A stretch of DNA of 64,000 nucleotides from Escherichia phage vB_EcoM_JS09. Each line of letters begins with the position of its first letter. Position 1 is the stretch's first letter. Below are positions 40,990 through 46,367 of the stretch, one piece after another. The notes beneath the pieces are model-generated. The model saw only the letters and a program-made list of their open reading frames with translations. It was not told where the DNA came from and ran no database searches. The translations under genes were made by a program, and so were the position numbers. The stretch lies in sequence record NC_024124.2. One strand, 5' to 3'.

Positions 40990-41478
40990 ATGAATATATT
41001 TGAAATGCTTCGTAATGACGAAGGTCTTAGACTGACTTTATACAAAGACACTGAAGGCTTTTGGACGATTGGCATAGGCCATTTAGTAACAAAGAACCCG
41101 TCTTTAGCCGTAGCTAAAGCTGAACTTGACAGAATGATCGGTCGTAAATGCAACGGTACAATTACCCTTGATGAGGCTGAAAAGCTATTTAATGAAGACG
41201 TTGATAAAGCCGTCCGCGGAATCTTGGGTAATGCTAAACTTAAACCGGTATATGATTCTTTAGATGCAGTTCGTCGATGTGCATTGGTCAATATGGTCTT
41301 CCAAATGGGTGTAGCAGGTGTAGCTGGTTTTACTAATTCTCTTCGTATGCTTCAACAAAAACGTTGGGATGAAGCGGCAGTAAATCTAGCCCAATCTAAA
41401 TGGTATCGTCAGACACCTAATCGCGCGAAACGCGTAATCTCAACATTTAAAACAGGAACTTGGAAAGCGTATATATGA
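40990..41478 (+). CDS. e: endolysin (T4 lysozyme, muramidase)
   Basis: [32 protein letters not shown]...; catalytic E11/D20/T26 context conserved; about 162 aa. Confidence 0.97.
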
Positions 41479-41756
41479 AAACATATAGTGAATTTTTATC
41501 AGAATCTATTCTTAACGAAGCTACTGACACATTTGCGACTAAGCTAGGTGCAGCTTTGGTTGAAGCTGAAAGTCTATTAGCACGTATTTCTGAACTTGCT
41601 AGTAAGATAGATACTCGCAAATTTGAGCGCACCAGTGATATCGTTAAGCTTGAAGCATTGTTGCGTATGTGCGATAAGCCAGAAGAAATCGCTAAGAACG
41701 GCTCGCTGATGAAACAACGTCTTGAAAAATATATTTCAGGCGCTTCAGAAAAATAG
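41475..41756 (+). CDS. internal-protein-like protein with CTS
   Basis: Track ORF 41460..; start at [10 protein letters not shown]...; 93 aa. Confidence 0.55.
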
Positions 41757-41757
41757 T

Positions 41758-41788
41758 GTTTACTTCCTCCAATGGTTTTGATACTATA
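41758..41788 (+). promoter_or_regulatory. early promoter (GTTTAC / TACTAT) with inverted repeat TTCCTCCAA / TTGGAGGAA spanning the SD of denV
   Basis: The 3' arm (41803-41811) is the denV Shine-Dalgarno. Confidence 0.55.
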
Positions 41789-41814
41789 CATTCATCAACT
41801 ACTTGGAGGAAATT

Positions 41815-42228
41815 ATGACTCGTATCAATTTAACACTTGTTTCTGAACTGGCCGACCAACATCTTATGGCTGAGTATCGTGAATTACCACGCGTATTTGG
41901 TGCAGTCCGTAAACATGTTCAAAACGGTAAACGTGTAAAGGATTTTAAAATCTCTCCAACATTTATCTTAGGCACAGGTCACGTAACATTCTTTTACGAC
42001 AAACTCGAATTTTTACGTTTACGCCAAATCGAGCTAATCGCTGAATGCTTGAAACGTGGTTTCAAAATCAAGGACACGACTGTCCAGGATATTTCCGACA
42101 TCCCTGCCGAATTTTGTAATAATTATGTCCCGTCCGAAGCGTCCATTGCGATAAGTCAAGCACGCTTAGATGAAAAAATTGCTCAACGTCCGACTTGGTA
42201 CAAATACTATGGTAAATCAATTTACTAA
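41815..42228 (+). CDS. denV: endonuclease V (pyrimidine-dimer DNA glycosylase / AP lyase)
   Basis: [35 protein letters not shown]... near-identical to T4 DenV; 137 aa. Confidence 0.95.
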
Positions 42229-42240
42229 GGAAAAATGAAA

Positions 42241-42351
42241 ATGTATCAAGAATTTATCATTGAAGCAGAGGCCAAAGGTCCTAAAGTAGATGTTGACGAT
42301 ATTGGATATGATTTTAACAACTTCGGAATTATTTCTGGCGGTAAAGCTTAA
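42241..42351 (+). CDS. short CTS-like peptide (36 aa; possibly an internal-protein gene remnant)
   Basis: MYQEFIIEAEAKGPKVDVDDIGYDFNNFGIISGGKA; has the CTS core YQEFI.E. Confidence 0.3.
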   Translation: MYQEFIIEAEAKGPKVDVDDIGYDFNNFGIISGGKA

Positions 42352-42354
42352 ACG

Positions 42355-42384
42355 GTTTACGCTTAAGTATTAATATGGTATAAT
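42355..42384 (+). promoter_or_regulatory. early promoter (GTTTAC / TATAAT)
   Basis: 18-nt spacer; upstream of 42415 CDS. Confidence 0.55.
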
Positions 42385-42414
42385 TGCTCTATCAAAACAA
42401 ACAAGGAAACAAAA

Positions 42415-42729
42415 ATGAAAACGTATAAAGAATTTATTGCAGAATCCGCCAACCAACGCGTTGAAGGTGGTTATATTTGGATTGAACAAGTTGAGCCACC
42501 GAGCCGCACTTCTACAGGTAAATGGAAAATTACTGTTGATGGTCCTGGTGGTAAACGTAGGACTCTTAAAGAAATTAACGGGTACTATGAAGAAGCTCTT
42601 TCGGATGCAGGAACTTACATGATGCAAATCATGATTAAAAACCCTGAAAACCGTTTTGCAGCTAAAGTCTTCCGCCGTATTGGTAATAAACTTTATGATG
42701 CATATTCTAAAAACTTCCCTAAAGAATAA
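42415..42729 (+). CDS. internal head protein with CTS
   Basis: 104 aa; N-terminus MKTYKEFIAE (CTS consensus with gp21 cleavage site after Glu10). Confidence 0.6.
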   Translation: MKTYKEFIAESANQRVEGGYIWIEQVEPPSRTSTGKWKITVDGPGGKRRTLKEINGYYEEALSDAGTYMMQIMIKNPENRFAAKVFRRIGNKLYDAYSKNFPKE

Positions 42730-42755
42730 CATAAATTAAAACAATAGGAAAAAAA

Positions 42756-43058
42756 ATGAAAACATATCAAGAATTTATTACTGAAGCGCGAGTGAGTGCA
42801 GGTAAATTAGAAGCCGCTATAAATAAAAAGGCCCATTCATTTCATGATTTGTCCGATAAAGACCGTAAGAAACTTGTAAGCCTTTATATTGACAAAGAGC
42901 GTATTCTCGCTCTTCCTGGCGCTAATGAAGGTAAACAGGCCAAGCCTTTGAATGCTGTCGAAAAGAAAATTGATAACTTTGCTTCTAAATTCGGTATGTC
43001 TATGGATGACCTTCAGCAAGCGGCTATCGAAGCAGCTAAAGTAATTAAAGGTAAATAA
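42756..43058 (+). CDS. internal head protein with CTS (ipII-like)
   Basis: 100 aa; MKTYQEFITEARVSAGKLEAAINKKAHSFHDL...; T4 IPII is about 100 aa. Confidence 0.65.
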   Translation: MKTYQEFITEARVSAGKLEAAINKKAHSFHDLSDKDRKKLVSLYIDKERILALPGANEGKQAKPLNAVEKKIDNFASKFGMSMDDLQQAAIEAAKVIKGK

Positions 43059-43060
43059 CA

Positions 43061-43090
43061 GTTTACTTTCTCCTAGAATTGTGATAGTAT
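43061..43090 (+). promoter_or_regulatory. early promoter (GTTTAC / TAGTAT) upstream of denV fragment
   Basis: Resembles the cassette upstream of intact denV. Confidence 0.5.
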
Positions 43091-43115
43091 ATTCATAATT
43101 ACTTGGATGGGTAAA

Positions 43116-43244
43116 ATGACTTATATTAATTTGACTTTAGTATCTAAATTTGCTGATCAACATTTAATCGCCGAATACTGTGAATTGCCACGTGTTTTTG
43201 GTATAATTCGTAAACACGTGGCAAAAATATTTACATTCAAATAA
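43116..43244 (+). pseudogene. truncated denV paralogue (N-terminal 35 codons, then divergence and stop)
   Basis: [42 protein letters not shown] versus den[36 protein letters not shown]... Confidence 0.6.
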
Positions 43245-43387
43245 AATGGGAACAACCTGGACCTCATGATTCTATGAGGGATTCCCGCCAACCTGTAATA
43301 AGGTCGAGCCCAAGTGCGGTAATGGGTAAATACAGAAATGGACAATTCATGCGCCATGGAATGGCCCCCAACCTTAAGAGAAATAAT

Positions 43388-43927
43388 ATGAGAACATTTT
43401 TAACTGGACCTTATCTATCCCTGATGAATGCTTTTACACACCATTCTGATGCTAGAGTAGAAGAAATTTGTAAGAACGGTTATGCCCCACCATTTGAAGA
43501 CGTACTCAAGCAGTACTGTACACTTCGTTTAGACGGCGGCAGACAATCAGGTAAATCGACCGCAGTAACTAATTTTGCTGTTAATTGGCTGTATGACGGT
43601 GGAACAGTTATTGTTCTTTCTAATACTTCAGCTTATTCTAAAATTTCTGCTGGCAACATTGAAAAAGAATTTTCTCGTTATTCTAGCGACGATATTCGAT
43701 TCCGTTTATTTACTGATTCTGTCCGTAGTTTTATTGGCAATGAAGGTTCTAAATTCCGTGGATTAACGCTTTCTCGTATTCTGTATATAATTGACGAGCC
43801 TATTAAAGCTCCTGATATGGATAAGATTTACAACATACATATTAAAACAGTCCAACACTGTTGCAAAAGCAAATATTGCATCGGCGGTATTGCTCGTCCT
43901 CAATTTTTTGTGATTGGAATGCAATGA
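43388..43927 (+). CDS. hypothetical P-loop protein
   Basis: Walker-A-like DGGRQSGKSTAV; start uncertain (track 43274; Met at 43388 chosen for SD aagaga). Confidence 0.5.
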   Translation: MRTFLTGPYLSLMNAFTHHSDARVEEICKNGYAPPFEDVLKQYCTLRLDGGRQSGKSTAVTNFAVNWLYDGGTVIVLSNTSAYSKISAGNIEKEFSRYSSDDIRFRLFTDSVRSFIGNEGSKFRGLTLSRILYIIDEPIKAPDMDKIYNIHIKTVQHCCKSKYCIGGIARPQFFVIGMQ

Positions 43928-44232
43928 TGACCACTATTGAAGTTTTTGAGTATTGTTATAACAGCCCAGTATGCAATAAAAGGGCTCTTGTAGAAAATTA
44001 CGAGATCTACCATTTTAAACCTAAACGATATTGTTTGACTAAAGGTCCGTTCGCAGGTCAGCAGGTTCTTTGTACTGCTCCTAATGCACGGTTGATGACT
44101 AGTATTCCGCATTTCAAAATGGAATTTATTGATGGGCCGTTTAAGGGATTAATCACTCAAAGTTTAATGGCGTTTAATTCCGTCCCATTTTTGATTAAAG
44201 AAAAAACTTGGATAAATTTATTTTCTAATTGA
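43924..44232 (+). CDS. hypothetical protein
   Basis: ATGA-coupled to upstream gene; MMTTIEVFEYCYNSPVCNKR... Confidence 0.5.
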   Translation: MMTTIEVFEYCYNSPVCNKRALVENYEIYHFKPKRYCLTKGPFAGQQVLCTAPNARLMTSIPHFKMEFIDGPFKGLITQSLMAFNSVPFLIKEKTWINLFSN

Positions 44233-44238
44233 GGTTAT

Positions 44239-44601
44239 ATGAAAGCATATCAAATTCTTGAAGGTGCGCATAAAGGCACTATTTATTTTGAAGACGGTAC
44301 TCAGGCCCGGATTATTGTCTCTAAGACTTTTAAAGAAGACGCTATTGTAGACCCGGAAATTTTCTACGGTTTGAATGCCCGTGAAATTGAAATTGAACAT
44401 CAACCTAAAGTTAAAATTGAAGGTGGTCAACACCTGAACGTTAACGTTCTGCGTCGTGAAACTCTGGAAGATGCAGTTAAGCATCCGGAAAAATATCCTC
44501 AGCTGACCATCCGTGTATCCGGTTATGCAGTTCGCTTTAACTCTCTGACTCCAGAACAGCAGCGCGACGTTATCGCTCGTACCTTTACTGAGAGTCTATA
44601 A
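44239..44601 (+). CDS. autonomous glycyl radical cofactor (GrcA/YfiD-like)
   Basis: C-terminal [61 protein letters not shown] matches the PflB/GrcA glycyl-radical domain (RVSGYA); a T4 homologue is known. Confidence 0.85.
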
Positions 44602-44825
44602 TGGCTAAATTGATTATAGAAGGGTCTGAAGATGTTTTAAAATGTTTTGCCGCCTGGTTTAGTTGCTCAGGCGAGCAATCATTCACTGAAGCATTTAGAA
44701 TGGGTGATATTACCGGAAACTATCCGACAACTGATATCACTGTACGTGGATATGGTATTAATGAGCCTATCCAATTGGTCGAATATGACCTTGCCACCGA
44801 TGAGGAAATTCCTTATGTCGATTGA
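44601..44825 (+). CDS. hypothetical protein
   Basis: 74 aa ORF, ATGA-coupled. Confidence 0.5.
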   Translation: MAKLIIEGSEDVLKCFAAWFSCSGEQSFTEAFRMGDITGNYPTTDITVRGYGINEPIQLVEYDLATDEEIPYVD

Positions 44826-45081
44826 AGATATTAAAGGTTACAAACCGCACACCGATGACAAAATCGGCAAAGTGAACGCTATTAAAGATGCCGAAGTCCG
44901 TCTTGGATTGATGTTTGATGCTCTGATTGAAGAAGCATATATCTTGAAAGAAAATGAAACAGAGCAACAAACCAAAGAAGATATGGATGCAGTGCAGGCT
45001 CTTAAGTACGCTAAGCAACATCTAAAAGAAGCCAGCATGTGGGCGTGTCGTGCAGTATTTCGACCTGAGGAAAAATACTAA
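44815..45081 (+). CDS. hypothetical protein
   Basis: Track ORF 44647..; start at MSIEDIKGYK... Confidence 0.5.
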   Translation: MSIEDIKGYKPHTDDKIGKVNAIKDAEVRLGLMFDALIEEAYILKENETEQQTKEDMDAVQALKYAKQHLKEASMWACRAVFRPEEKY

Positions 45082-45296
45082 TGGCTTCTACTATTACTGG
45101 GTTATTGGACTTTCAAGAAAAGGTCAACAAAATTTGTAGTGAATACTTAAAGTATCTTGAAGAAGACCTTGAAGATTGTAAGGAAGAAGGCGAAGAAGAC
45201 TATGCTGACCAGCGCCGACGCCAAATCGAAGAGATGAGGCATTTCGCCGATATGGTATCTAAAGAATCTTGGGCTTTAACTCCATTTTATCAATAA
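45081..45296 (+). CDS. hypothetical protein
   Basis: 71 aa, acidic. Confidence 0.5.
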   Translation: MASTITGLLDFQEKVNKICSEYLKYLEEDLEDCKEEGEEDYADQRRRQIEEMRHFADMVSKESWALTPFYQ

Positions 45297-45300
45297 AGTA

Positions 45301-45329
45301 GTTTACTTCTCCTCTAGTTGTGTTACTAT
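45301..45329 (+). promoter_or_regulatory. early promoter (GTTTAC / TACTAT) with 14-bp perfect inverted repeat TTCTCCTCTAGTTG / CAACTAGAGGAGAA
   Basis: The 3' arm (45339-45352) contains the SD of regB. Confidence 0.6.
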
Positions 45330-45357
45330 AGACCTTGTCAACTAGAGGAGAAACCAA

Positions 45358-45816
45358 ATGACTATCAATTCGGAAGTTTTTATCCGCCGTAATAAACTCC
45401 GTCGAATCTTTGAAACGGAGTTCCGCAAAATAAATGCCGGTATAAAAGATGCTGCAAAGTCTCTTGGACTACCAGGCTTTCATATCAAGTATTCTCAACA
45501 TCTCTTAGATCGTGCCATCCAGAGAGAAATAGATGAGAATTACGTTTTTGAATTATTTCATAAAGTAAAAAATCATGTTAAAGAAGTTGCAGAATTTTTA
45601 TCAATGCCGGCACGTCCAGATGTTGATGAAGATTTTGTCGAAGGTGTCGAATATCGCCCAGGCCGTTTAGAAATAACTGATGGAAATCTTTGGTTAGGAC
45701 TTACAGTTTGTCGCGAAAATCCAGCATTCAAAATGAAGACTCTTCAATGTAGAATGGCTATTATTAACAGTAAACGACTACCAGGAAAAGCTTCTAAAGC
45801 AGTGATTAAAATCTAG
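45358..45816 (+). CDS. regB: RegB site-specific endoribonuclease
   Basis: MTINSEVFIRRNKLRRIFETEFRKIN... near-identical to T4 RegB; 152 aa. Confidence 0.92.
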   Translation: MTINSEVFIRRNKLRRIFETEFRKINAGIKDAAKSLGLPGFHIKYSQHLLDRAIQREIDENYVFELFHKVKNHVKEVAEFLSMPARPDVDEDFVEGVEYRPGRLEITDGNLWLGLTVCRENPAFKMKTLQCRMAIINSKRLPGKASKAVIKI

Positions 45817-45824
45817 AGGTAAAC

Positions 45825-46367
45825 ATGAGAAAAGCACTACTCGCTGGTCTATTTGCTCTTTCGTTATCAGCACATAGCTCCGAGCATACTTTTAGTAATG
45901 TCCAACTCGATAACTTGAATTATGCTTATCAGTTTGGGGAACAGTTTTCTAAGGACGGAAAATTTAAAACGCATGAAAATATGCATAAGAAAGGACTTGG
46001 ATACATAATGGCCGCAATACTATGGCAGGAATCATCTGCTGGTATTAATCTTAAAGATAAGAAAGGTCACCATGCGTATGGAATGTTCCAAAACTATCTA
46101 CCAACAATGAGGGCAAGAATTAACCAGCTTGGTTATAATATGACTGATGCCCAAATTAAGAAAATGCTATCTAAGCGGTCTAATTCAACCAGATGGGCTT
46201 ATATCGAATTTTCTTATTGGTTAAATATACATAATGGGGATATAAGAAAAGCTATATCCTCATACAATGCGGGATGGAAGACAAGTGCTGGAAGTAAATA
46301 TGCTTCTGAAGTCCTAGAAAAGGCTAATTACCTTAAATCAAATAAACTACTGGAAATAAAAGAATGA
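45825..46367 (+). CDS. secreted lytic-transglycosylase-like protein
   Basis: Signal peptide MRKALLAGLFALSLSAHS; SLT-like motifs ILWQESS...GMFQ...SSYNAG. Confidence 0.6.
   Translation: MRKALLAGLFALSLSAHSSEHTFSNVQLDNLNYAYQFGEQFSKDGKFKTHENMHKKGLGYIMAAILWQESSAGINLKDKKGHHAYGMFQNYLPTMRARINQLGYNMTDAQIKKMLSKRSNSTRWAYIEFSYWLNIHNGDIRKAISSYNAGWKTSAGSKYASEVLEKANYLKSNKLLEIKE

Follow-up and report, generated by a model that had tools for sequence, protein, structure and literature searches.

Why should a T-even phage with an intact gene for endonuclease V carry, in the same region of its genome, a second and much shorter open reading frame that begins like the same gene? The question is posed by a 64,000-nucleotide stretch (hereafter the window) of Escherichia phage vB_EcoM_JS09, a Mosigvirus of the T-even group whose closest records are AV110 and pEK20 (~98%). 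An earlier note on this DNA had read the short ORF as a truncated copy of denV, left behind by cassette-mediated duplication or module replacement. The evidence set out below makes it very probable that the ORF is a pseudogene, derived from an intact denV of another allelic type by a 292-bp deletion between short repeats, and that the promoter of the lost gene was kept.

The denV locus and the identity of the short ORF

The locus runs on the plus strand throughout. Past nudE (40497) and the lysozyme gene e (ending at 41478), an internal-protein (IP) gene (41475–41756) is followed by the promoter (41758–41787) and coding sequence (41815–42228) of the resident denV. This gene is intact (PF03013, E = 6.6e-14; phrog_1183, E = 6e-63) and of the RB69/T4 type, its product sharing 98.6% amino-acid identity with RB69 DenV and 91% with T4 DenV. 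Next come a shortened IP ORF (42235–42351), an IP-like ORF (42415–42729) and ipII (42756–43058; phrog_7857, E = 4.5e-55), which lies directly 5' of the short denV-like ORF. The first gene on its 3' side is a vs.8 homologue (43388–43927; phrog_1488, E = 1.4e-77, with synteny to T4 vs.8), followed by vs.7 (43924–44232) and vs.6/grcA (44239–44601; Pfam Gly_radical, E = 2e-18). Three IP genes separate the two denV copies, not the two previously counted, and the three ORFs share the IP N-termini MK(T/M)YQEF/MKTYKEF. The one at 42235–42351, with 38 codons, is itself a deletion derivative: its counterpart in AV110, phi25-307 and RB69 encodes a protein of 84–86 amino acids, and in the window, pEK20 and TU01 144 bp are missing, in frame, between two GTCCTAAA repeats. 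The vs.6/grcA gene, downstream of the promoter retained before the short ORF, is a phage homologue of the autonomous glycyl-radical cofactor GrcA/YfiD (T4 vs.6).

The short ORF itself (43116–43244, plus strand; 129 nt, 42 codons plus TAA) agreed in sequence and coordinates with its earlier description, and the resemblance to the first 35 residues of DenV was borne out. Residues 1–35 are 80% identical to resident DenV (tblastn, E = 1.7e-14); the match to residues 1–37 of T4 endonuclease V (PDB 2END, E = 1.1e-13) amounts to significant family homology, and phrog_1183 was matched at E = 1.6e-13. The earlier note had allowed that the coding similarity might be due to chance if nucleotide likeness stopped at the promoter and leader. 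The nucleotide comparison that it called for extends through promoter and leader and ~105 nt into the coding sequence, and chance similarity is thereby set aside. Compared with T4 endonuclease V (DenV; PF03013; PDB 2END, 1VAS), the homologous residues 1–35 include Thr2 and Glu23; the fragment differs in keeping only 35 of the 138 residues, the C-terminal body being deleted, and in the replacement of Arg3 and Arg22. It has 42 codons where the complete single-domain DenV has ~138 residues, codons 36–132 are gone, and its score against Pfam PF03013 (Pyr_excise), 18.8 bits, falls below the gathering cut-off of 23. Besides the resident gene, no second denV body or further denV segment was found in the 64-kb window. 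By its sequence, the fragment would thus be an ordinary denV pseudogene and not an enzyme; the proposal that it is non-functional accords with the missing body, the replaced active-site arginine and the sub-threshold Pfam score.

The place that the fragment occupies bears on its origin. The gene order in T4 is e–ipIII–ipII–denV–vs.8, and in RB69, as in the window, it is the e-proximal slot that carries the intact denV. Given the T4 order ipII–denV–vs.8, it is therefore the fragment, and not the intact gene, that sits in the canonical denV position. In the comparison with related phages that had been recommended, the T4 arrangement is the canonical one and the fragment lies in its denV slot; in both promoter and genomic position the fragment matches T4 denV.

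Allelic origin and the deletion junction

To which denV the fragment is related was apparent from nucleotide identities. Over its first 107 nt, identity is 94.4% with intact denV from ZCEC14 and 90.7% with intact denV from HP3, and many Tequatroviruses match the fragment at 91–94%. Against resident-type denV, identity is only ~72–77% (72% to the resident-type gene of HX01). We refer to the HP3/ZCEC14-type allele as H-type; it shares only 77% protein identity with the resident RB69/T4-type allele. The likeness to ZCEC14 includes ipII, which is identical at 303 of 303 nt, and the block 42750–43225, comprising ipII, the promoter and the fragment up to its break, is 97.9% identical to ZCEC14, compared with 81–83% in the flanks. 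These identities to the ZCEC14 block and to H-type denV show that the two denV copies are different alleles joined by inter-lineage phage recombination.

Exchange of this kind fits what has been described for the region. Plasticity of the IP loci, of which this is one of two, and the associated promoter cassettes were reported by Repoila et al. (1994), in the part of that work relayed in PMC2839356; PeSL cassettes and modular shuffling in hyperplastic regions were reported by Arbiol et al. (2010; PMC2839356) and Comeau et al. (2014; PMC4122927). The fragment lies in the ipII/ipIII–denV hyperplastic locus with T4-type early promoter cassettes flanking it, and the locus is mosaic, with modules exchanged between the Tequatrovirus and Mosigvirus lineages. 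Of the earlier suggestion of cassette-mediated duplication or module replacement, the module shuffling therefore stands. A duplication of the resident denV within this genome, followed by truncation, might be argued from the same type of GTTTAC cassette before both copies and from the known ability of PeSL-type cassettes to mediate shuffling in T4-like phages (PMC2839356, PMC4122927), but we regard it as highly improbable: the copies are only ~75% identical in DNA, far less than the fragment is to the other, widespread allele; the fragment holds the ancestral T4 position; and ESCO47 has the same junction allele without a resident-type copy at the locus. Nor did recombination at a cassette truncate the gene. 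The break lies inside the coding sequence, where 292 bp were lost between 6-bp GGCAAA repeats without a cassette crossover, and among the truncations considered here only that of ZCEC14, which concerns the other copy, ends at a cassette.

The geometry of the break was established from three-way and 13-way alignments with intact genes, HP3, ZCEC14 and T4 among them, in which the fragment shows a single clean gap. Positions 43116–43219 correspond to nt 1–104 of HP3/ZCEC14-type denV and 43220–43240 to the last 21 nt of the gene. In the intact genes of HP3, ZCEC14 and locus L013, GGCAAA occurs at denV nt 105 and again at nt 397; in the window the sole surviving GGCAAA occupies the junction (43220–43225). 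Loss of the 292 bp shifts the reading frame, so that the ORF passes through the final 21 nt of denV in the wrong frame and meets a new TAA stop at 43242–43244. Pairs of six-mer repeats make up 0.05% of the possible end-point pairs in the region. The repeat is thus present at both ends in relatives and once at the junction, the configuration that a microhomology deletion would leave, and replication slippage or microhomology-mediated illegitimate recombination is its most likely cause. Phage T4 deletions bounded by short direct repeats are familiar from the classical rII studies. One copy of the repeat remains at the junction here as it does there, but the present alleles are natural and fixed in wild lineages, whereas the rII deletions were laboratory mutants. 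The junction allele is known from phages of Korea, Denmark, Nepal and France and is therefore not an assembly artefact.

We propose that an H-type denV once stood intact in the canonical T-even slot (ipII, denV, vs.8), the working denV of the phage being the other, RB69/T4-type allele in a separate slot beside e. A single deletion between the GGCAAA repeats would have removed codons 36–132 and shifted the frame, leaving the promoter, the ribosome-binding site, 35 DenV codons and seven out-of-frame codons, and this coding remnant would now be drifting.

Two other readings of the break were weighed. The fragment could be the first exon of a denV into which an intron or a mobile endonuclease gene has been inserted, or be completed by programmed frameshifting; T-even phages do have group I introns and homing endonucleases, and the sequence just 3' of the fragment is unusually conserved and structured (see below). 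Next to no probability can be given to a split gene of this kind, since Rfam returned no intron or other family match in 41000–46000, neither the 64-kb window nor the sibling genomes hold a second denV segment, the downstream element also follows directly on the stop of intact denV genes, and the 292 bp are plainly absent relative to those genes. The second reading is an inter-genomic illegitimate recombination, in which a ZCEC14-like left arm was joined to the right arm of a Mosigvirus whose denV had already been reduced to a 3' remnant. That the 97.9% block ends at the junction would fit such an event, as would the T>C substitution in the former stop codon (ACATTCAAATAA), which is common to the HX01-type remnant and absent from intact genes. 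However, the 166 nt 3' of the junction are 94–95% identical to all lineages alike and therefore do not discriminate, and the GGCAAA microhomology would still be required at the junction. We consider this history unlikely; it would alter the past of the fragment and not its nature. The preferred reading is thus the deletion from an intact H-type gene.

Decay of the remnant and states of the locus in relatives

Decay was measured against the consensus of four intact H-type genes over the first 36 codons. In the intact genes, 18 of the nucleotide changes from this consensus are synonymous and 4 non-synonymous; the corresponding counts are 3 and 6 in the window allele and 4 and 10 in that of ESCO47. 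All four of these intact genes encode Thr2, Glu23 and Arg3/Arg22/Arg26 without variation; Glu23 and the three arginines are active-site residues of endonuclease V. The window fragment keeps Thr2, Glu23 and Arg26, with Arg3 replaced by Tyr and Arg22 by Cys. Across the five carriers of the junction allele (the window, pEK20, AV110, TU01 and ESCO47), R3Y is present in all five and R22C in four, and R26C occurs in ESCO47. The N-terminal amine of Thr2 is the catalytic nucleophile of endonuclease V (PMC3285167), and an R3Q mutant of the enzyme is present in the PDB alignment (1ENI). The ribosome-binding site has degraded as well: in carriers aligned with intact genes, the Shine-Dalgarno sequence at 43105–43111 (plus strand) reads GGATGGG in the window where intact genes have GGAGGGG or GGAGGGA, and the GGAGG core has become GGATG or GGGTG in 4/5 carriers. 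An extra T in pEK20 and AV110 cuts the ORF to 32 codons. That the fragment has more differences than the adjacent ipII, which is identical in ZCEC14, might be due in part to a recombination boundary and not to faster drift.

Could the ORF nevertheless encode a functional 42-residue micro-protein, such as a DNA-binding or dominant-negative endonuclease V helix, or serve as a regulatory upstream ORF for vs.8? It is open in three of the five carriers, so that a peptide might be made from it; a promoter remains, as does a ribosome-binding site, though weakened, and Thr2 and Glu23 are retained. These points are outweighed by the frameshift in the other two carriers, the preponderance of non-synonymous over synonymous changes, the loss of R3, R22 and R26 among carriers together with the degraded ribosome-binding site, and the Pfam score below threshold. 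Moreover, other Mosigviruses have dropped the coding part wholly or kept three codons, with no sign of a replacement. We therefore consider a functional product very unlikely, and a decaying pseudogene is the reading that we carry forward. Three GenBank relatives label the fragment ORF 'endonuclease' or 'endonuclease V N-glysidase'.

The junction allele is rare, being found in only 4 of 50,697 GenBank phage records (pEK20, AV110, TU01 and ESCO47), and loss at this locus has taken several other forms. In HX01, W143 and ZQ3 the H-type copy has suffered a 347-bp deletion between GACTCG repeats that leaves ATG-ACT-CGA-TGA, and in SA79RD a 507-bp deletion between GGGTAAA repeats. In phi25-307 and RB69 an IP-like gene occupies the slot. 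ZCEC14 is the mirror image of the window: an intact H-type gene stands in the canonical slot, and the e-proximal copy is a 46-codon denV remnant (locus L012, 1351–1491). This RB69-type gene breaks off after codon 38, where 428 bp have been deleted between AAACGGT repeats whose equivalents in the window lie at 41922 and 42350; the second repeat lies directly against the GTTTAC of the promoter cassette that follows. The record of ZCEC14 annotates its intact H-type gene as 'TraG-like protein'. Altogether, five short-repeat deletion junctions were found across relatives at the locus, with repeats of 6–8 bp and deletions of 144–507 bp.

These states resemble a reciprocal loss of redundant copies: the window keeps the RB69-type gene and has lost the H-type, ZCEC14 the converse, and neither these two nor any other genome keeps both. 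They differ from the usual case in that the copies are divergent alleles united by recombination (xenologues) and not duplicates, and in that the two-copy ancestor is hypothetical. A tblastn search with DenV residues 45–138 found 802 GenBank records with 802 places, so that no sequenced phage in that set carries two denV bodies, and two intact denV genes were likewise not found among 152 loci from IMG/VR and GenBank. Because no genome with both copies intact was found, an intermediate of that kind can only be postulated, and the deletion could have occurred in a genome without a second copy, as exemplified by ESCO47. In its first 50 kb, which contain the locus, ESCO47 has the allele of the window without an intact denV or a resident-type copy. 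G8 (NC_054915) and Shinka (MZ502379) retain only a 38-residue 3' remnant of RB69/T4-type denV (tblastn). The states of these three phages indicate that loss of denV is tolerated in nature; all three appear to be without an intact denV and are predicted to be naturally UV-sensitive.

The retained promoter and a probable vs.8 leader

Upstream of the fragment, at 43061–43090 on the plus strand, lies a predicted T4-type early promoter with a GTTTAC/TTTACT -35 element, a 17-nt spacer and a TGn-extended TAGTAT -10 element. The same pattern precedes intact denV at 41758–41787, as the earlier note had remarked. By pattern match across the window, the cassette GTTTAC-N15-TGATANTAT was found three times (38465, 41758–41787 and 43061–43090) against an expectation of zero. 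We used this T4-specific pattern in place of a sigma-70 consensus scan, which misses GTTTAC promoters because they score 8/12. The published T4/PST PeSL promoter consensus is TTTACW-N17-TAYWAT (PMC4122927); 43062–43090, TTTACT-N17-TAGTAT preceded by G, deviates from it at a single position, in the -10. In the record of SA79RD the same cassette is annotated by its depositors as a T4 early promoter. They also annotate a predicted terminator overlapping the corresponding cassette, whereas our scan of 43040–43115 gave none. No terminator was predicted between the promoter and vs.8, and no further GTTTAC promoter was found between 43091 and 44300. Each of the three alleles in which the H-type copy is deleted (that of the window, the HX01 type and SA79RD) keeps the promoter, and so does phi25-307. 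These features suggest that it probably still drives vs.8, vs.7 and grcA by read-through. Its retention would be explained by this supply of early transcription to vs.8–vs.7–vs.6 (grcA), with the dead ORF now only part of a leader of ~290 nt.

The same stretch before vs.8 holds a conserved structured element of 86 nt on the plus strand (43246–43331, core 43291–43322), situated after the denV stop and spared by the deletion. It was found in more than 40 T4-like loci of several genera, always between the stop of the upstream ORF and vs.8; the upstream ORF is denV where that gene is intact and an IP-like gene in RB69 and phi25-307. The element is single-copy in the window, tandemly duplicated in two loci (L027 and L087) and deleted in SA79RD. 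A hand-defined structure of four helices is 93.7–93.9% paired, compared with 81–86% in shuffles. The outer helix has compensatory changes at 4/4 pairs, occurring as AAGG/CCUU, AAGC/GCUU, AAGA/UCUU and GGGA/UCCC. Such changes are also present in the helix that closes the second domain and, once, in the ACCU/AGGU hairpin, and helix 2 shows co-deletion of a paired C/G. A covariance model trained on loci of RB69 type and on more remote T4-like loci, with none of the T4/HP3 type, matches the element of the window at 59.7 bits (E about 1e-12). Other approaches gave less. A single-sequence fold of 43240–43395 was no more stable than shuffles (z = 0.33), and RNAalifold on a MAFFT alignment yielded just a 4-bp and a 2-bp helix (six predicted pairs), a poor return because two forms of the element were misaligned. 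No Rfam intron, riboswitch or sRNA family was matched in 41000–46000 or in three distant loci, and ARAGORN found no tRNA-like gene at 42900–43600.

A GTTTACA promoter of its own follows the element in RB69-type phages, so that the element may represent one half, the stem-loop, of a PeSL-like unit. A bolder proposal would be that promoter, dead mini-ORF and 86-nt element together form a working regulatory leader for vs.8–vs.7–grcA, with the element as an undescribed RNA motif; we hold this to be quite unlikely. Were it true, the element would be an attenuator, processing site or stability element kept across several T4-like genera. A literature search brought up no relevant account of either the remnant or the downstream element.

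A coding role for the element was also considered and rejected. In the annotations of T4 and TU01, Vs.8 is long and has its start within the element (MRDSRQPVIRSSPSAV...; 43274–43387 in the window). A frame encoding PVIRSSPSAV is often open, but as the N-terminus of a long Vs.8 or as a small upstream ORF it conserves neither start, stop nor frame. In the window the long frame joins vs.8 only through an extra C in the run at 43365–43369, and AV110 differs by one C; the frame is broken or missing in AV110, pEK20, HP3 and RB69, RB69 being frameshifted and HP3 lacking the ATG. The extension at the N-terminus is thus unlikely to be truly coding, and the most likely start of vs.8 is 43388.

What the remnant means is modest in scope. 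It is an ordinary scar of module shuffling, knowledge of denV and of phage genome evolution is unchanged by it, and its value lies mainly in annotation: the ORF should be marked as a pseudogene in the GenBank relatives. The neighbouring structured element may merit separate study. The locus as a whole is a compact natural case of T-even phages resolving redundancy after module exchange, with five independent deletions between repeats of 6–8 bp in relatives and the promoter spared each time that the H-type copy was lost.
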